Positions 38,908-48,153 of a stretch of DNA of 64,000 nucleotides are shown here, piece by piece (the stretch's first letter is position 1; each line of letters begins with the position of its first letter). Both the position numbers and the translations under genes were made by a program. The DNA is from a phage: sequence record PZ386976.1, one strand, 5' to 3'. The notes beneath the pieces are model-generated. The model was not told the origin of the DNA. It worked only from the letters and a program-made list of their open reading frames with translations, and searched no databases.

Positions 38908-39100
38908 TTTCTGCAAAGATTGTGCTATCGAAATGTTTGGACGTGATACAGGTGACTTAAAAGGTCTCATCACTGAAGATGACTTTAAAGCTGGCTATGC
39001 AATGCCAGTAATCTGTGAAGGTTGTGGGTGCATCTGGGTAGACCACGAAGGGCAACGTGTAAAACCTTCAGAAGATAAAGAATCTTGGGAGAGATGTTAA
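38864..39100 (+). CDS. hypothetical Cys-rich protein
   Basis: 78 aa with CKDC...CEGCGC. Confidence 0.35.
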   Translation: MAKASSFKRQLFMADFCKDCAIEMFGRDTGDLKGLITEDDFKAGYAMPVICEGCGCIWVDHEGQRVKPSEDKESWERC

Positions 39101-39886
39101 ATGGGTATTGTAAAAATCATCAATGGTGATATCTTTGCAGCATTTGATAAAGGTAAGTTTGACGTCATTGGTCACGGTTGCAACTGTATGAATTTAATGG
39201 GTGCAGGTATCGCTGACAAGATTTCTAAACTTTACCCAAAAGCATATGAGACTGATACAGAAGTTTATCTATATGCAGGCGGTATAGGCCACAAACCCTG
39301 TGAAAATTTACTGGGTAATTTCTCCGTAGCACGTTTAAAACAAGGTCGTATAGCTAACCTTTACACTCAGCTTAAGACTGGTAAAGATGCCAGATACAGT
39401 GCTTTAGAGTCATCTTTGAAACAGCTTAACAGATACTGTGAAGTCAACCAGTTGAAGAAGGTTGGTCTACCTATGATTGGTGCAGGTATCGGTGGGCTAG
39501 ACCCTCAAGCCGTCACAGTTATCATTAATCAGGTGATGAAGAGTGTAGATGTGTATCTTTATGTCTACGAAGGAGAGATGTACCACAAGTTACGCTCAGG
39601 TTGGAAGAACTACTGTGAACCAGAATACTTTGCAGGTGTAGTAGTGTTCACTAATGATGCAGTTACCCTCTTCAGACGAAGAAAAGGTAAGATACATCAA
39701 AGTAACCCTCCGGTTGAAAAGATGTCTCTAAGTAACGCTCTAGTTACCCACCTGTCGAAGAGCAGTCACAGGATTGCAGTAACATTTGGCAGTGATGCAG
39801 ATGCTTACATCTATGCAAGAACTGATGAGGATATCGAGACGGTTTTCTCTTCACCAGAGCTTACCTTCTTAGACGCAAAGAACTAA
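39101..39886 (+). CDS. macrodomain protein (putative ADP-ribose binding/hydrolase)
   Basis: macrodomain-like glycine motifs VIGHGCNCMNLMGAGIA and PMIGAGIGGL; extra C-terminal ~100 aa. Confidence 0.55.
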   Translation: MGIVKIINGDIFAAFDKGKFDVIGHGCNCMNLMGAGIADKISKLYPKAYETDTEVYLYAGGIGHKPCENLLGNFSVARLKQGRIANLYTQLKTGKDARYSALESSLKQLNRYCEVNQLKKVGLPMIGAGIGGLDPQAVTVIINQVMKSVDVYLYVYEGEMYHKLRSGWKNYCEPEYFAGVVVFTNDAVTLFRRRKGKIHQSNPPVEKMSLSNALVTHLSKSSHRIAVTFGSDADAYIYARTDEDIETVFSSPELTFLDAKN

Positions 39887-39954
39887 GAAACTTCGTAGTA
39901 TATTCACAATAGACTAAGCCTTTCTTATCTGGTAAATTTTTCAGGTAAGGAGGG

Positions 39955-40140
39955 CTTTTTCATTTCAGAATTGTGCAGGTAGAGTTCTGTAGAGAAATCT
40001 ATAGAGAAAATTTTGAACTCCAAAGAGAAAATTCATTTTCAAACTGTGCAGGTAATCTCCAAAGAGCTTTTCCATTTTCAAAACGTGCAGACCCCACTCA
40101 GGTCGGGCAAGAAAAATCATTTTAGAATTGTGCAGGTAGG
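39955..40140 (+). repeat. four direct repeats of (cattttca)NNNtgtgcaggta, iteron/operator-like
   Basis: tgtgcaggta at 39972, 40045, 40129 and variant cgtgcagacc at 40084, spaced 40-75 bp, in ORF-free region before small-gene array. Confidence 0.4.
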
Positions 40141-40393
40141 TGGGTGTAGGTGGGGCTGTCGCCATTTCTCACAAGGCTACCACATATGAAAATAAAAGTC
40201 AACAGAAAAATTTGTAGCGGATTGAAAAATAATTCTTGATTGTAGTTCTGTTTTGTGGTAGTCATGCGCGCCCGTTTCATTCCATTTTTGCAAAAATATT
40301 TTTAAAATTTTTTATTGACTCTTTGAACGGGTTTTTATAGTATTTGCATCAGACGGGCAATCAAGCCCACTTCCTAAACTGGAGAATCTAAAA

Positions 40394-40600
40394 ATGCTTT
40401 ACAGTCGTGAATTGATGGTTACAACTAACGTTAACACAAAGGTAAAACGTTTTTACATGCAAATTTGTGGCGTATGGTCTAGAATATCAGAGGCTGACTA
40501 TTGCAACTATGTAGGAACAGCTATAGAATCTAATTGCTACCTTACAAGAAACACTAAGAACTTTATAAGACAGACAGCAATTTACTACTACGATAAATAA
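40394..40600 (+). CDS. small hypothetical protein (array ORF 1)
   Basis: 68 aa, RBS ggaga. Confidence 0.4.
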   Translation: MLYSRELMVTTNVNTKVKRFYMQICGVWSRISEADYCNYVGTAIESNCYLTRNTKNFIRQTAIYYYDK

Positions 40601-40690
40601 AAAGTACTTTACAGGGGGCTTATAAGGCTGTACAGTAAGCCCCAGATAAAGAGCTTTACCACATTAACCCTTAAACTAGGAGATTCTAAA

Positions 40691-41074
40691 ATGGCATATC
40701 GCGCACCTAAATTCATCAATAAAGACAACTTTCGCAACGCACTGGAGAAGTCACTTGATGAGAATTTTAAAGGCAACGTTATTGTTGTTCACTCGTTTAA
40801 TTTCAAGTATGATATCAACGGGAATAAAATCAACCATTACACGGCAACCATGATAGATGGTACACTATCAAGTGAAAAAGCCATTTTGCATGCACTTGCT
40901 GGACGTGGTAAAAACCTGATAAAATGTGATAAGAGACGTTATCAGGGTGGCGCATATGGTTATGATGATGCTGTTTATCATCTTGAAAATATGGGCTATC
41001 AAGTAGAAAAAGCTGGAGCGTCTCAAATAATCGGTAGTGATGGTTACGTAACTATCTTCAAAATTAACAAATAA
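40691..41074 (+). CDS. small hypothetical protein (array ORF 2)
   Basis: 127 aa; C-terminal KINK encoded within repeat cassette. Confidence 0.45.
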   Translation: MAYRAPKFINKDNFRNALEKSLDENFKGNVIVVHSFNFKYDINGNKINHYTATMIDGTLSSEKAILHALAGRGKNLIKCDKRRYQGGAYGYDDAVYHLENMGYQVEKAGASQIIGSDGYVTIFKINK

Positions 41075-41159
41075 AGTACTTTACAAGGGGCTTATAGTTC
41101 GATAAAGTAAGCCCCAGATAAAGAGCTTTACCACTCAATCCTAAATTGGAGAACTAAAA

Positions 41160-41453
41160 ATGGCTATTATCAAAAACGTTGTAATTGCTGCAAAAACTCG
41201 TGATGACGCTCGCGTTATGGCTAAAAAGTTATGCGGGAAAGTGGTTGACAACGGAAAACAATCTGCTGTAAGGTGGGGCGTGAAGGCTGATAAACAGTTG
41301 AAGTTAAAAAATTCACCGATAAACCTTTTTACATGTGTAAACACTATCGGGAAGACAACTGTATACACGAAAAAGGCATACATTAGACGCGTAGCATTAA
41401 CATCCCCCATTCGTACAATGAGAAGTTATGCAAAGCTGAAAATTAACAAATAA
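41160..41453 (+). CDS. small hypothetical protein (array ORF 3)
   Basis: 97 aa basic. Confidence 0.4.
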   Translation: MAIIKNVVIAAKTRDDARVMAKKLCGKVVDNGKQSAVRWGVKADKQLKLKNSPINLFTCVNTIGKTTVYTKKAYIRRVALTSPIRTMRSYAKLKINK

Positions 41454-41537
41454 AGTACTTTACAGGGGGCTTAAAAGTTGATATCTTAAGCCCCAGATAA
41501 AGAGCTTTACCACTCAATCCTAAACTGGAGATTCAAA

Positions 41538-42050
41538 ATGAAGACTGTAGACGCTACTTTTGAAGTTGTAAAAGAAAAATTCACTATTATTTATGAAGCG
41601 GTAAATTGCTACGAAGCAAGCCATAATCTTGATAATTGGAAGTTTACAGATGACCATCAAGGCGGCGTGACTGTTAAAAATCCTAACTGTCAGCATAATG
41701 AATTTAAATATGCAATCCCTTTACATTACAGCCTTAAACAGCTTTCTAGTGACTATGCAAAACAAGGCCGGGAAAATCCATCAAAAGAGGCTTACGCAAG
41801 CTTACAGAAAGAACTAGAAAGAGATTTAGAGGCTTCAGAGTACAACCTTGCCGCGAAAGTTGTCGATGCAAACGGTAACACGGTTTTAGAAAGTTTTTAT
41901 CTTGGTTATGCTTTCGATTGGTGCTATCGTGACGGCGATGATTTAGAGGATAGACTAAAAGAAGAGGTGAACAATTCAGACGCAGAAACTGAAGTATTAG
42001 AACGTTTGGAATCGTTGAAAGACTCAGTGATGAATATCTTTAAGAACTAA
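41538..42050 (+). CDS. hypothetical protein (array ORF 4)
   Basis: 170 aa. Confidence 0.45.
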   Translation: MKTVDATFEVVKEKFTIIYEAVNCYEASHNLDNWKFTDDHQGGVTVKNPNCQHNEFKYAIPLHYSLKQLSSDYAKQGRENPSKEAYASLQKELERDLEASEYNLAAKVVDANGNTVLESFYLGYAFDWCYRDGDDLEDRLKEEVNNSDAETEVLERLESLKDSVMNIFKN

Positions 42051-42141
42051 ATAGATTTCTTTACACGGGGTTATCAAGCTGGTAGGATAGCCCCAGATAA
42101 AGAGATTTATCAAATAAAGCCCTTAAACTAGGAGATTCAAA

Positions 42142-42438
42142 ATGAAATTATCAAATAAAGTTCGTGAAAATCTAAGCAAGTTACTAAACAAAATTGATTT
42201 CATTGAAACATCAAGAAATAATCATGATGTTATGGAATGGTTGCACGGCAAAATAAAAGGCCGTCGTGTAGTGATTTGCTTATGGAATAGCTGCAGGGAG
42301 TATAAAAAACCTGTATTGCAAGTCAATATTTATGATGACACCTTTAAAAGTCCTGTAAAGTCTAAAAGCGATTTATTAGAATCCTATGAGATAACTGTAA
42401 ATGGTAAAGTGTCACGTAAAGAGGAAACACCATGCTGA
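42142..42438 (+). CDS. small hypothetical protein (array ORF 5)
   Basis: 98 aa. Confidence 0.4.
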   Translation: MKLSNKVRENLSKLLNKIDFIETSRNNHDVMEWLHGKIKGRRVVICLWNSCREYKKPVLQVNIYDDTFKSPVKSKSDLLESYEITVNGKVSRKEETPC

Positions 42439-42764
42439 TGACTGGTATCACTGCAATCATTGCCATTTTCGCGCTCTATAAGGCATATAAAGCCTATAAT
42501 CTAGCAAATAAGGCAATCACGCAGCAGGTTAGCAATAGCCTTGTAGAGAGCTTTCTAGAGCGCCTCAGTGATGAGCAAATAAAGCGGCTAGAGATGAGCT
42601 TCAGATATAAAGCGAAAACCTATCAGATAAGTGACATCTTCAAAGATGATTTTCAGTTAGTCGATGATTATAATTCACTGATAAATGCTTTAAATATCAG
42701 TGACTTAAAAGACTACTACGCTGTAATTGTTCAAGAATTGAGCAAACGAAAACAAAGTGTTTGA
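42432..42764 (+). CDS. small membrane protein (array ORF 6)
   Basis: 110 aa with N-terminal hydrophobic helix. Confidence 0.4.
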   Translation: MLMTGITAIIAIFALYKAYKAYNLANKAITQQVSNSLVESFLERLSDEQIKRLEMSFRYKAKTYQISDIFKDDFQLVDDYNSLINALNISDLKDYYAVIVQELSKRKQSV

Positions 42765-42854
42765 CACTGGTTTTTAGATAGATTAAATTACACATCAACG
42801 GGGAGGTAATAACCTTCCCCACTAAATAAAGTCCTTAAACTAGGAGAGTCTAAA

Positions 42855-43127
42855 ATGTATACTACTAACAATGGTCGTACTTTAAATGTAACTTTACGTC
42901 ACTATGTAGACGGTGTAATGCACTTTGAGGATTTACGGGCTGAACAACATATCTTAGATTGGCAAGTAGCAGGACTCCAAAAAACTGCTACGGGATATGG
43001 TAAAAAGATTCCAACCAGTTGGAAAGTACACTACGAAGGACGTTTGCGCAGAATTTATCAAGATGTATGTAGTAATAGCGCATCAAGTTACATCATAGTA
43101 AAAGGTAAAAAACTGCACTTAGTATAA
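42855..43127 (+). CDS. small hypothetical protein (array ORF 7)
   Basis: 90 aa. Confidence 0.4.
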   Translation: MYTTNNGRTLNVTLRHYVDGVMHFEDLRAEQHILDWQVAGLQKTATGYGKKIPTSWKVHYEGRLRRIYQDVCSNSASSYIIVKGKKLHLV

Positions 43128-43212
43128 AGTGCTTTACATGGGGCTTAAAAGTCTGTAAAGTAAGCCCCAGATAAAGAGCTTTACCACTAAATCCTAAATT
43201 GGAGATTCTAAA

Positions 43213-43617
43213 ATGGCTATTAACAACCGTGAATTATCAATCTTAAAAGCACGTTTGACCGTTAACCGGATTAATGTTATTACGTCATCAGCACCGGACG
43301 AAACATTACACAACATTATCGGGAAGATTCAAAGCGTTATCTTAGACGTTGAAAATGTAAAAAGCTCATTGGCTGACGTTGCAGCAGGTATCACGCTAGA
43401 CGGCGCACAATATGAAATGGCTGACATGTTAGGCAAATCAAAGATAATGAATAAAGAGCTTGATTTAAAAATGTTTCGATTTGCCGTGAAAGTGTGGCTA
43501 TCCGTCGAGTATGACGCCAATTTTGCAATCGCTGATTTCTTTGCCACTTGGTTACAACGTAATTTGACAAATCACGATTTTCGTGATGTCTGTGATGCAA
43601 TTTATGCAGAACTCTAA
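43213..43617 (+). CDS. hypothetical protein (array ORF 8)
   Basis: 134 aa. Confidence 0.45.
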   Translation: MAINNRELSILKARLTVNRINVITSSAPDETLHNIIGKIQSVILDVENVKSSLADVAAGITLDGAQYEMADMLGKSKIMNKELDLKMFRFAVKVWLSVEYDANFAIADFFATWLQRNLTNHDFRDVCDAIYAEL

Positions 43618-43719
43618 AAATTTTATTGACACTGGTTTTTAGATAGATTAAATTACACATCAACGGGGAGGGAATGACCTTCCCACTAAATAAAGTCCTT
43701 AAACTAGGAGATTCTAAAA

Positions 43720-43923
43720 ATGGCTATTATTAATGGCTTAACCATTGAAACTACACACATCAAAGATATTAAAGTTGGTGATATAGTCCTTTCCCACGGC
43801 GTAGAAAAAACTGTCACTGCAAAGGATATCAAAGAGGATTCTTTCATGGGTAGGACTCTCTTCGGTGATTCTTATTGCTTAGGTTATCTTGCAGTTTTAA
43901 AAGTTGTCAAAAATAACAAATAA
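43720..43923 (+). CDS. small hypothetical protein (array ORF 9)
   Basis: 67 aa; C-terminal NNK in repeat cassette. Confidence 0.4.
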   Translation: MAIINGLTIETTHIKDIKVGDIVLSHGVEKTVTAKDIKEDSFMGRTLFGDSYCLGYLAVLKVVKNNK

Positions 43924-44009
43924 AGTACTTTACAAGGGGCTTATAGTTCGATAAAGTAAGCCCCAGATAAAGAGCTTTACCACTAAATCCTTAAACTAGG
44001 AGATTCAAA

Positions 44010-44576
44010 ATGAAATGCTATCACGGCACTACTCTGAAAAACTTTGTAAACCTGCTTAAAGGTGGCGACAAGCCGGAAGGTATCTGGAACTGCTCTTACA
44101 TGGATGATTGTTTTTACGTTTACCCGATGGATAAGATTATCAAGACGGAATGCCTGGAAGATGAAGAAGCCTCTTACATCCGTGAACGCTGCATTCAAAA
44201 CGCTTTAGAGTCGGGGCTTATTACGGCAGCTTTCCAAATGGAAACGCAGGAAGTGATTGTAATTGAGATGGATATCCCAGAGGAAGAACTTGAGGACGAT
44301 TATTCTTGTGACAACATGAGCGAAATCGCCAGCTTTACCGGTTACTTTGATAAAGATTGGATTATTGGTATTCACTCAACGAAATTTAGTGCAATGTATG
44401 CGCCATTCTTTGTACCTGATACAACTAACCGAAATTTGGGATATATTGACGATGATTTGTTGAGTATTGCAAAAATTGTACAGAATAGCGGGGATACTTC
44501 TTCTTTGTTTTGTGACCTGCTGGATAAAATTACCGAGAATCTCACAGAGCGCAATCTAAGCGACTTTTTAGACTAA
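44010..44576 (+). CDS. hypothetical acidic protein (array ORF 10)
   Basis: 188 aa. Confidence 0.45.
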   Translation: MKCYHGTTLKNFVNLLKGGDKPEGIWNCSYMDDCFYVYPMDKIIKTECLEDEEASYIRERCIQNALESGLITAAFQMETQEVIVIEMDIPEEELEDDYSCDNMSEIASFTGYFDKDWIIGIHSTKFSAMYAPFFVPDTTNRNLGYIDDDLLSIAKIVQNSGDTSSLFCDLLDKITENLTERNLSDFLD

Positions 44577-44639
44577 GCAGTACAAAGACACTAATTTCCA
44601 ACTTAAGGCCCATACAGGGCCATTTAAAGGGCTTAAATC

Positions 44640-44873
44640 ATGCTTACAACCGTTTACCTTATCCTTTCTGTTTGTAATGGCCATTCATGTGACTTTAAAG
44701 GGCTTGAGGAGTTCACAGGAAGTAAAGAAAATACTATTCAAGTTTGCCAGATAGCAAGACAAGACTACCCCGCCAGTGACGACATTCAATGCTACTTTAA
44801 GACAGAAGATGAAGACGGAATCTATTTTGACAGCGTTGACGGTCAATATGAAATTATCATAGAAAAAGATTAG
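44640..44873 (+). CDS. small hypothetical protein (array ORF 11)
   Basis: 77 aa. Confidence 0.4.
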   Translation: MLTTVYLILSVCNGHSCDFKGLEEFTGSKENTIQVCQIARQDYPASDDIQCYFKTEDEDGIYFDSVDGQYEIIIEKD

Positions 44874-44909
44874 ACAAGCCTGATAAAAGTCTGTAAATTG
44901 TCAATCAAC

Positions 44910-44923
44910 GGGGGGGGGGGGGG
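44910..44923 (+). repeat. G14 homopolymer tract inside a cassette hairpin
   Basis: 14 consecutive G where other cassette copies have ggggagg(g). Confidence 0.6.
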
Positions 44924-44970
44924 TAACAACCTCCCACTACATAAAACCCTTAAACTAGGAGATTCAAAAA

Positions 44971-45312
44971 ATGGCTTATGTAACTGTAATTACCAATAAA
45001 CCGGATTCATCTTGGTCAACTCAAGTAAGCGACAAGATGTCACCTATGCAGTGCCTAAAATACTTTGAGCAATGGAATAAAGGCGAGGATGTAAGCCCCT
45101 TTCAAATAATGCAGATTATTCATGTAGACAATGAAGGGAAGAAAACGACTTTGAACAGTGAGTACTATGCAAGCCGCTTCGAAACGAGAAGTAAAGCAAT
45201 GAAGCTTCTACGTGAATCCGGTTATGCTCATATTGCCGCACTAATCTGGGATGACCTGCTAAAAAGTCAACGTATCAGCTATGTAAAGCCTGAAAAAATA
45301 TTCATCAGTTAA
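44971..45312 (+). CDS. small hypothetical protein (array ORF 12)
   Basis: 113 aa. Confidence 0.4.
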   Translation: MAYVTVITNKPDSSWSTQVSDKMSPMQCLKYFEQWNKGEDVSPFQIMQIIHVDNEGKKTTLNSEYYASRFETRSKAMKLLRESGYAHIAALIWDDLLKSQRISYVKPEKIFIS

Positions 45313-45531
45313 TCAATAACTTACAAAAAACTTTTAAAAAAGTGTTGACAATACCCCTTGACATTGGTAACTTTGTTCGAGGGGGTTTATCTAAAAGGGA
45401 TTCACTTAAAAGATTCTTTATAGATAAGCTTAAAAAATTGCTTGCAATCAGCTATCAAAACAAGTAAATTACTAATCAACGGGAGGGATGACCTCCCCAC
45501 TAAATAAAATCCTTAAACTAGGAGAGCCAAA

Positions 45532-46062
45532 ATGAACAAGTTTAAAGCTATCAACTTCATTCGTTCAAATGCTGTAATGTCAAAACCTGTAAAAGACACA
45601 TACGAATTTCGCTGCAATGGGGTACACTTTGCAACCATCACTAAGTCAGAAAACGGGGTTTATTACATTCATCGCCGTAATGTTTCTACTGTTGTAGTCT
45701 CTCACTTTATGCAAGCTGTAGCGGAATTATTACCATTATTCTTAGAGATTTATCTAGATGAGTGTAAAAACATTCGTAACCACGTTAAAAACCTTTTAAA
45801 CGGTTATAAAATGGCTTATGAACGTTCTATCAAGTCCTTAAACAAGTTCTATAAAGCCCCTATGAATACCGTTTCAATGGCTTACAGTGTAAGCGGTGAG
45901 TTGGTTAGCCTCTTCGAAGTGGAAGAAATCGAACTGCATGACTTGCGCCCTAGTGGTTACTCTAAGACACTGGGAGAAGGCTTATCTTTCAATATCAAGA
46001 ACTTAGAAAAAACTTTAAAAGATATTGAAAAAGATATTGACGAAACAATCAAAAATCTGTAA
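45532..46062 (+). CDS. hypothetical protein (array ORF 13)
   Basis: 176 aa. Confidence 0.45.
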   Translation: MNKFKAINFIRSNAVMSKPVKDTYEFRCNGVHFATITKSENGVYYIHRRNVSTVVVSHFMQAVAELLPLFLEIYLDECKNIRNHVKNLLNGYKMAYERSIKSLNKFYKAPMNTVSMAYSVSGELVSLFEVEEIELHDLRPSGYSKTLGEGLSFNIKNLEKTLKDIEKDIDETIKNL

Positions 46063-46141
46063 ATTGTCAATCAACGGGGAGGGAATGACCTTCCCCACTA
46101 AATAAAACCCTTAATCAACTTCCTAAACTGGAGATTCTAAA

Positions 46142-46390: not shown

Positions 46391-48153
46391 TCGACGCAAC
46401 GGGGCTATTTAGCCCCAGATACCTTTACAGCCCCTTAAATGGGGCTTTTTTACGTCTATCAAATTCCTTTCCAGAATCTTAAAACCCACCTAACAAGTCA
46501 GAACTTTACCAATGATTCGATAGAATCTATCTCATACCTTAAAAAGCAATAACTCTATAGTCTACTCTATAGCCTTTTATCAAATCAACTTAAATATAAG
46601 CCCATAACCCGAAAGGGAAGGGCAACCACTAAAACGCTCTATAAAGCTCTATAACAGCCTTATCAACCTAACTTAATGGATTGCATTAACCCACCTTAAA
46701 AAGCTCTTTACAGGGCTTTATAGAGACTTAAAAGAATCTTATAAGGTTATAAGCTTTATTATCTCGTTAGCTATCTTGTGAACTACTAAAAAGGGCTATG
46801 AGATAGGACTCTATGAGGGGTAATTCATTACCTGAATCACTATCAAATCCTATTGTTATTGTCTTAAAAGTATGTTATATGGGTTTGAAAGTAGCTTAAA
46901 AGTTACGTAAATGCTAGCCCCCTTAACATTTTCTTAACAATTTCTTAACAAACCCTACATAGCTATGCTTGTTAGCCCCTTGTTAAATTTCTGTTAAGAC
47001 CACGTAAAAGCCTTGTAAGAGTCTTTGGCATAGCCTTAAAAGCCCCTGTAAAGCCCTATAAAGAGCTATCCATACAGTTGAGGGGTAAATACTAGGAAGA
47101 GGCTTAAAAGAGCCTATAAAGAGTTATAGAGAGCTTTTAAAAGGTATGTTTAAGGAATCACTAAGAAAGGAAAGGGAACGATAAGAGAAGAGAGTTGTGT
47201 TTGTAAACAACCACTGTGACCATGTTAATAGCTTGTTAAAAAGATTAAACACTTGTTAGAAACTTGTTAATTGTCTAACTGGTATTGTTACCAATCCCTA
47301 CAAAATAACTCTTAAAAATTAACTTGTTAGCTCTTGTTAGTCATCTGTTAAGATTCTGTAAAGACTATTCAGCAACTGTTAAGAAACTGTTACAACCTTG
47401 TTAGTTCTGTTAAGAAACTGTTAAGACCTTTGAAGAGTTGTTAAGAAGATGTGAGAATTGTTAAGAGATTGTTAAGGATATTTTAAAATTCTGCAAAGGG
47501 GATGTTACAGGGATGTTAAGGGCTACCAAGCAGATATACATCTTCTACAGATATTTTTGAGTTCCTTCAAAGACCCTAAAAAAAATGACTTGACAGTCCT
47601 ATTTTATAAAAATTTTAAGATTCTGAATAATTACCTATACAGCCTTTTAAAAATACAGGTAATAACAGGCTTATAAGATACCTTGTTAGTACCGTGTTAG
47701 ACCTTGTGAGATAAGGTCTGTAAAGATATTCCTGTTAAGTTTGTTAAAACAGTTTATATAGAGGCTTAGTAATACCTAGTGAACACCTATAGAGAGTGTC
47801 ATAGCTGACATGATGGGTTACTGTTAAGTAACACAGATAACCTAGAGATTAAGAGGTGTATAGGGGCTTCTAAGAGTGTGTAGAGAGATGGTTAAGGTGA
47901 TTGTATAGGTTGTTAAGAAGGCTTGTTAGAAGAGTGTTTAGAAGGGCTATACAGGGGGGCTATTAAGACCACTAGATAGTTACTAAGATACTATATAGTA
48001 CTATATAACTATATATATAGAGAGTAAGCTTAAGAAGGTTATTAAGAAGGATAGATATTTTATTCACATATGATGGTGACCCAGAGGTTGGGACAACCGA
48101 TGAAATTTTATAAAAATTAAAAAGCCCCCAATTAAGGAGGCTCTTAAGATATT
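46391..48153. repeat. ~1.7 kb ORF-free repeat region with dense (C/T)TGTTA(A/G) and CTATAAAGAG motifs
   Basis: no ORF of 60 aa or more on either strand; more than 25 copies of tgttaag/tgttaga/tgttagc, densest 47200-47530, plus ctataaagag-type repeats 46600-47150. Confidence 0.6.

Follow-up and report, generated by a model that had tools for sequence, protein, structure and literature searches.

The replication origins of phage lambda (lambda ori), T4 (oriE), SPP1 and the lactococcal phages are clusters of direct repeats, and classic iterons follow each other at a spacing of about 22 bp. Asymmetric, oriented sites are also found in mycobacteriophage L5, where they are named stoperators. In phage T5, the first-step transfer brings 7.9% of the genome into the cell (10.1101/866236), and the injection-stop region (iss) contains DnaA boxes together with conserved untranslated repeats (Davison, 10.1101/866236).

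Here we describe a repeat array found in a window of 64,000 nucleotides (record PZ386976.1), which is the whole stretch of DNA that was analysed. By its sequence, the window is the DNA of a Felixounavirus, a Felix O1-like myovirus; positions 39000-41200 are 92–95% identical to many Escherichia and Salmonella Felixounavirus genomes. The Felix O1-like phages are classic tools of typing and biocontrol. Like lambda ori (four O-protein sites and an A/T-rich region), T4 oriE and the iterons of the plasmids P1, F and R6K, the array is a unique set of three to five same-orientation direct repeats of about 20 bp in non-coding DNA, with A-tracts beside the sites and with an A/T-rich tract and a strong promoter close by. 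It differs from the iteron origins in that an initiator is usually encoded nearby in those systems and none was recognised near the array, in a spacing of 37–45 bp (73 bp for units 1 and 2) instead of about 22 bp, in its location away from the replication genes, and in the neutral effect of insertions.

The array shares with the L5 gp71 stoperators and the P1 C1 operators the arrangement of asymmetric sites of one orientation in a short intergenic stretch that follows a transcription unit. However, those sites are dispersed over many loci and overlap promoters, or act genome-wide in lysogeny, whereas the array is a single, promoter-distant cluster in a virulent phage and no repressor was identified for it. 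The T5 iss, too, consists of highly conserved, untranslated repeats that lie where a terminal block of early genes, about 8% of the genome, has its inner border, and its DnaA boxes resemble the 3' half-site of the array in some lineages, although the Felixounavirus copies are poor boxes. In contrast to the array, the iss has large inverted repeats or palindromes, and the terminal repeat of T5 measures about 10 kb rather than about 0.6 kb. No description of the repeats was found in the searchable literature, including the Felix O1-like genome papers; Whichard et al. 2010 listed only repeats of at least 24 bp, which are located elsewhere, and stated the transcription timing of Felix O1 as unknown (PMC3185647).

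Organization of the non-coding gap

The repeats sit in a 507-nt non-coding gap between the macrodomain gene (39101-39886) and the first small gene of the early array (40394-40600, + strand), which encodes a 68-aa protein without known family. The macrodomain gene is the last of a rightward gene block of about 30 kb; it has a Pfam Macro match and is often annotated as 'phosphatase'. A strong intrinsic terminator at 39916-39957 (+ strand), consisting of a 17-pair stem and a T-run, ends the long rightward operon after this gene. A terminator is annotated at this site in phages Barry and KhF1, and the 3' arm AGGTAAGGAGGGCTTTT is kept across Felixounavirus and Mooglevirus-type loci. The T-tract of the terminator doubles as the T5 tract of repeat 1, an arrangement seen alike in Felixounavirus, Mooglevirus-type and Si3-type loci.

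Repeat 4 is followed on its right by a dimorphic segment of about 55 nt (40141-40193) with a mean pairwise identity of 0.56. The window allele, present in 140 GenBank records, is G-rich on the + strand, and the alternative allele of relatives has a C-rich tract that forms a G-quadruplex motif on the minus strand. The minus strand of the C-rich allele reads GGGGAGAGGGGGAGTAAGAGGGGGAGAGGGG, a canonical motif of this type. The best-conserved block of the gap comes next (40194-40250, AAAAGTCAAnAGAAAAATTTGTAG...AAAAATAATTCTTGA), with a mean pairwise identity of 0.94 over 40194-40241. A degenerate half-copy of the repeat is found inside this block, at 40224-40239 (GAAAAATAATTCTTGA). In Mooglevirus-type phages, the block 40194-40241 makes an 8-nt inverted repeat, AGTCAAGA/TCTTGACT, which amounts to two back-to-back -35-like hexamers. 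An A/T-only upstream tract and the first sigma-70-type promoter, here called promoter P1, occupy 40283-40343 on the + strand, the promoter being TTGACT-17-TAGTAT at 40315-40343. Equivalent promoters were found in Mooglevirus-type and Erwinia loci. The array is best described as part of a larger conserved control region composed of the terminator, the four units, the dimorphic segment, the block 40194-40241, the UP tract and promoter P1.

The early array downstream (40599-44022, also 42761-46095) contains repeated cassettes of about 60–100 nt in which a TTTACA-type promoter overlaps a G+C hairpin, with a conserved 5'-UTR, AGATAAAGAGCTTTACCAC...CCTAAAyTGGAG. The cassettes resemble the promoter-stem-loop cassettes of T4-type phages. 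Many early-array genes have a promoter-plus-hairpin cassette of their own, and the repeat motif is absent from these cassettes. By RT-PCR, several small-array genes of Felix O1 were placed in the 5-min class (Whichard et al. 2010, PMC3185647). A 110-aa protein of the early array, encoded at 42432-42764 and equivalent to Bas63 gp103, has no Pfam or PHROG function; in the accessible part of the PhageMaP report, its gene is the only array gene that is strongly deleterious when disrupted, with values of about -0.8 to -1.9 (10.1101/2024.10.10.617714).

The repeat units

An earlier note, made from the window alone, had pointed to three exact copies and one variant of a decamer, each preceded by a catttca-like sequence. 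Both observations were borne out. The exact decamer TGTGCAGGTA is located at 39972-39981, 40045-40054 and 40129-40138, which are its sole exact copies in the window, and the variant CGTGCAGACC at 40084-40093, while TCATTTC, TCATTTT or CCATTTT stands 5' of each decamer. The note had also placed the copies just before the first promoter, which is correct, as repeat 4 ends 174 nt ahead of the -35 hexamer of promoter P1 and does not overlap it. Its description of the stretch as ORF-free stands in substance; mechanical ORFs do exist, such as one of 66 aa on the minus strand at 39965-40165, and one relative has them annotated as bas63_0096/0097, but lineages differ in whether such ORFs occur and in their frame and length.

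The decamers belong to four larger units of about 33–36 nt, all on the + strand and together spanning 39949-40141. Each unit is made up of a purine-rich hexamer, an A5/T5 tract, TCATTTy, a spacer of six or seven nucleotides and GTGCAG. TCATTT and GTGCAG constitute the conserved core, and the trailing GTA falls outside it. Unit 1 (39949-39984) reads GGAGGG-CTTTT-TCATTTC-AGAATT-GTGCAGGTA. Unit 2 (40022-40057), which is missing in Si3-type relatives, reads AAAGAG-AAAAT-TCATTTT-CAAACT-GTGCAGGTA. The 'variant' unit 3 (40061-40096) reads AAAGAG-CTTTT-CCATTTT-CAAAAC-GTGCAGACC; its GTGCAGA instead of GTGCAGGT is specific to this copy and is kept in Felixounavirus and most Mooglevirus-type loci. Unit 4 (40106-40141), the best-conserved copy, reads GGCAAG-AAAAA-TCATTTT-AGAATT-GTGCAGGTA. 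Taken as 22-mers, the copies start at 39960, 40033, 40072 and 40117, with start-to-start distances of 73, 39 and 45 nt. The units are asymmetric direct repeats without dyad symmetry, positioned 174–366 bp upstream of promoter P1.

The decamer alone is unremarkable, with 10 matches in the window at no more than one mismatch against 4.4 expected. The extended 22-mer, searched in the window at no more than three mismatches, has an expectation of 0.00 and matches solely at the array. In the complete 87.1-kb genome of Bas63 (JohannRWettstein), the pattern CATTT-N5-9-GTGCAG gives four matches, all of them here and on one strand. Since the motif is confined to one cluster and is unique in the genome, a dispersed phage promoter motif was rejected. 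The units also fit poorly, by eye, to the promoter consensus of sigma-70, sigma-54, sigma-E, T4 or SPO1. None of the host sites compared, by eye only, fits them either (IHF, Fis, CRP, Fur, MarA box, dif/XerCD and Type I restriction targets).

Two further readings of the array were tried and rejected. Coding repeats had been considered on account of the minus-strand genes bas63_0096/0097 and Mordin gp014, whose frame, length and start vary between lineages. The differences in spacing between lineages (73/75/77 and 39/41) are not multiples of three, and the Erwinia locus L042 has no ORF of at least 30 aa over the array, while a related Erwinia locus, L072, has a minus-strand ORF of 60 aa. As the reading frames are not conserved, the array was not considered to be coding. 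Structured RNA gave no folding signal (z = -0.26 for the + strand and -0.86 for the - strand), and no Rfam match reached the gathering score. It is well supported that the array is a non-coding, cis-acting element of four same-orientation units of about 33 bp with a bipartite core.

Conservation of the array in Ounavirinae

The array is present in all Felixounavirus loci examined, at the spacing 73/39/45, with a few loci one copy short under a strict pattern. Mooglevirus/Suspvirus-type loci, whose macrodomain protein is about 64% identical, have four copies spaced 73-77/39-41/45, and Si3-type phages have three, unit 2 being lost. In Erwinia Kolesnikvirus, four copies of the form TTTTTCATTTT-N6-GTGCATAG are spaced more tightly (37/37/39), and the order is terminator, four copies, C-rich tract, A/T-rich tract, a strong TTGACT-17-TATATT promoter and the first small gene. 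The 88-kb metagenomic phage L066, with only 30–40% protein identity to Bas63, has five copies, one of them degenerate, and retains the order of macrodomain gene, copies, promoter and early gene.

Among 17 distinct Felixounavirus- and Mooglevirus-type sequences, the mean pairwise identity was 0.961 at the 48 core positions compared with 0.775 at the 135 other array positions, and none of 20,000 permutations reached this difference. The orthology of single copies is visible from the left flank GGTC(G/T)GGCAAGAAAAATCATTTT, common to Felix copy 4 and Erwinia copy 3. Despite shared flanks, the two groups differ in every copy, one having GTGCAG(G/A)T and the other GTGCATA(G/A) (GTGCAGGT versus GTGCATAG). 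The 3' half-site therefore changed in parallel in all copies. A parallel change of this kind in all orthologous copies is expected if a single protein recognises them and co-evolves with them.

When viral, genome and metagenome collections were scanned for the motif, only Ounavirinae carried the element; the other matches were coding or unrelated tandem repeats. A scan of one genome per bacterial species revealed no such repeat cluster in any Enterobacterales chromosome. TCATTTT-N6-GTGCA was observed within tandem units of unrelated Ignavibacteria MAGs (L088, L093 and L098), with periods of, for example, 32 nt and 42 nt. It is also contained in two 50-nt repeats upstream of a sigma-70 promoter on a 10-kb viral contig (L051/L129). 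L051 and L067 have no proteins in common with Bas63. The arrays of Ignavibacteria and L051 are likely a coincidence.

The putative DNA-binding protein

The earlier note had suggested operator or iteron sites. A protein-binding-site-like behaviour is supported, at the level of sequence, by the higher conservation of the core over the spacers, the uniqueness in the genome and the persistence across genera with concerted change of the 3' half-site. The array is therefore probably a set of binding sites for one sequence-specific DNA-binding protein and a candidate iteron-like array. An asymmetric two-part site of about 20 bp would fit a head-to-tail oligomer, or else a protein that reads DNA with two modules.

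The putative binder is most likely encoded by the phage, because the 3' half-sites changed together between lineages and none of the Enterobacterales chromosomes scanned has such a cluster. A conserved host factor is disfavored because the match to the DnaA box is good only in Erwinia and in some L066 copies and has drifted in Felixounavirus. Bas63 gp35 (HTH_3) is the sole recognisable sequence-specific DNA-binding protein and is found in Felixounavirus and Mooglevirus-type phages. As the binder it is not supported, since it was not detected in those Erwinia phages in which the array is retained. PHROGs and Pfam searches of 20 replication-module hypotheticals, four small upstream genes and the early-array proteins returned no Rep, initiator, winged-helix or other DNA-binding family, although a protein of unknown function may fill the role.

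Unique in the genome, non-coding and deeply conserved, the array ranks among the best-conserved non-coding parts of the gap, and it thus offers a concrete 200-bp bait for the putative DNA-binding protein. Deletion, origin mapping and engineering likewise have a defined target in it, for example as a safe insertion site or for early-gene control. If it is only a dispensable regulatory site, it would be one more phage cis element of an ordinary kind.

Possible functions of the array

By analogy with the iteron systems, the four sites would nucleate an origin-type, iteron-like nucleoprotein complex beside an easily melted A/T tract. Promoter P1 would fire away from this tract, and the negative supercoiling behind the polymerase would aid its opening, an arrangement like that of gidA at oriC. 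Such an origin element would be helpful, yet dispensable under laboratory conditions. Among the possible roles we favor the origin-type one, although it is doubtful in itself, and the combined statement of a protein-binding array with origin-type assembly is put forward tentatively. In its favor are the unique cluster of direct repeats in the 507-bp non-coding gap with an A- or T-tract beside every site, the strong outward promoter P1, and the A/T tract at 40280-40320, a 41-bp stretch that stands at the 99.5th percentile of the window for low duplex stability. The tract is 140 nt from unit 4 and doubles as the UP region of promoter P1, and the regions at about 9.25 kb and 47.6–48 kb are less stable. 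Against an origin, the protein searches described above gave no initiator-like protein, the array is neither inside nor adjacent to the replication genes, and the unit spacing given above is wider and less regular than that of classic iterons. GC skew shows no inflection at the array, which is uninformative because the skew tracks transcription. In the accessible part of the PhageMaP report, barcode insertions in Bas63 'gene 96', a spurious ORF across the repeats, gave +0.24 to +0.98, like neutral neighbours (10.1101/2024.10.10.617714). The insertions are single, without deletion, and leave most sites intact, so the integrity of the array is dispensable but not necessarily every site.

Several other explanations can be weighed against the origin-type role. 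A phage regulator on four oriented sites after the terminator may act as a roadblock, an insulator, or, by looping to the degenerate site near promoter P1, as a repressor or activator, and would keep the upstream operon and the early array apart or set the timing of the promoter. This regulatory role, a refinement of the idea in the earlier note and the main rival, is unlikely, though worth keeping in view. It agrees with the location of the array directly after the terminator, whose T-tract unit 1 shares, with the orientation of the units along transcription, as in the oriented, asymmetric stoperators, and with a degenerate half-copy 65–90 bp upstream of the -35 hexamer of promoter P1 within the best-conserved block; the element is also dispensable, like most early genes. 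The distances are less favorable, as no site overlaps promoter P1, and the sites are not dyad-symmetric. In addition, gp35, the sole annotated regulator, is missing from the Erwinia phages that keep the array. The stronger proposal of the earlier note, that the repeats control entry into the early array, is unsupported. The sites are 174–366 bp upstream of promoter P1 and are direct asymmetric repeats, not dyads, and insertions within the Bas63 repeats carried no fitness cost. Moreover, many array genes have their own motif-free promoter cassettes, so that the early array as a whole cannot be gated at the repeats. The four units might instead be functionless, or serve recombination only, as remnants of tandem duplications of terminator-proximal or 5'-UTR cassette DNA that are hitch-hiking or provide homology for module shuffling. 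Unit 3 does share AAAGAGCTTT with the repeated 5'-UTR cassettes of the early array, the copy number ranges from 3 to 5 between lineages, and insertions were neutral in the laboratory. We consider such remnants improbable, since lineages with 30–40% protein identity retain the core but have scrambled spacers, conservation is much higher at core positions than in the spacers, and the parallel half-site change argues for selection on recognition instead of drift.

The position of the array, about 8.4% of the genome from the right end against 7.9% for the T5 first-step transfer, recalls a DNA-entry checkpoint or host DnaA-binding region analogous to the T5 injection stop, which would mark where the terminal block of about 7.4 kb, with the early array and the terminal repeat, ends on its inner side. 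Membrane-associated DnaA or a phage protein would bind the array during DNA entry. Scored by eye against the consensus TT(A/T)TNCACA, most Erwinia and L066 copies match the reverse complement of the DnaA box (TTWTNCACA) at 7–8 of 9 positions, two L066 copies being weaker; Erwinia copies reach up to 8/9, the best L066 copy 8/9 and the others 6–7/9, and the window copies ACCTGCACA 6/9. In Felixounavirus the match is 6/9 only, and all copies have drifted from the box together, which is unexpected for an invariant host protein. DnaA also does not explain the equally conserved TCATTTT half, the inverted repeats or palindromes of T5 are missing, no two-step DNA transfer is reported for Felix O1-like phages in the literature searched, and the T5 model is itself unproven. 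An entry checkpoint of this kind, though an attractive analogy, is very improbable. A broader proposal combines the array with the G-quadruplex-prone or dimorphic segment into a new cis element of Felix O1-like myoviruses that would mark how far the first-entering terminal segment, about 8% of the genome, reaches inward, as an entry checkpoint or a transcription- or R-loop-primed origin with a putative phage protein; we regard it as a long shot. Least probable of all would be a sponge or primer RNA, a non-coding leftward transcript that starts in the A/T region and runs across the G-rich tract and all four units, the units being its repeated modules. The Erwinia locus L042 has a good leftward promoter (TTGACG-18-TATACT) right of the array, the minus strand of the window has, by eye, TTGACT-17-TAGCCT preceded by TG, and the leftward RNA would be G-rich across the C-tract allele. 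However, the promoter scan found no minus-strand promoter in Felixounavirus or Mooglevirus-type loci, and neither strand gave a folding signal or an Rfam match at gathering score. The units have no conserved hairpin each, because the A5/T5 tracts alternate. The upstream hairpin has, by eye, no minus-strand T-run in the window and thus would not terminate a leftward transcript.

Genome ends and sequence breaks near the array

A terminal repeat was suspected in the gap because several metagenome contigs and two GenBank records end there and the repeats of Felix O1-like phages are about 600 bp long. Sequences that end within the gap are L008, L009 (which runs into a Nextera adapter), EC106 and KhF1. 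The terminal repeat is 608 bp in UAB_Phi87 (PMC4837284) and 581 bp in Pr103Blw (PMC8303462). A terminal repeat or packaging site at the array was rejected, as the experimentally based repeat annotation of Pr103Blw maps 6.8 kb downstream, at 46917-47527 of the window. The record layout of phage D4, with direct terminal repeats determined by PhageTerm, is consistent with an opening at the equivalent of 46917-47527. The array is therefore 6.8 kb inside the terminal repeat, and the right physical end as mapped is 7.4 kb away from it, which in an 88-kb genome is about 8.4%.

Most simply, the breaks of contigs and records in the gap are sequencing or assembly failures, as they fall in the C-rich allele of G-quadruplex type. 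L008, L009 and the record ON210138 stop inside this allele at ...CTTACTCC, and the Sanger-derived start of KT184313 decays into Ns at the same point; the breaks may reflect polymerase failure or a real discontinuity. The KhF1 record KT184313.1 (L036, 1-200) opens with an N-rich, low-quality duplicate, about 190 nt long, of the region right of the repeats, and its ends are not physical genome ends. In L018 (4783-5198; IMGVR_UViG_3300045988_004180), phage sequence switches to non-phage sequence right after CAGGTCGGG, between repeats 3 and 4. The non-phage part looks, by eye, like a gene for an ATP-binding protein, and a chimeric assembly is probable.

The window segment 46917-47527, which corresponds to the direct terminal repeat in Felix O1-like phages, is about 611 nt long and dense in TTAACA/TGTTAA (3 + 13 copies). 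It sits at the junction of the rightward early array and a leftward gene block. In L066, a similar run of TTAACA lies directly between the repeat array and the first early promoter.
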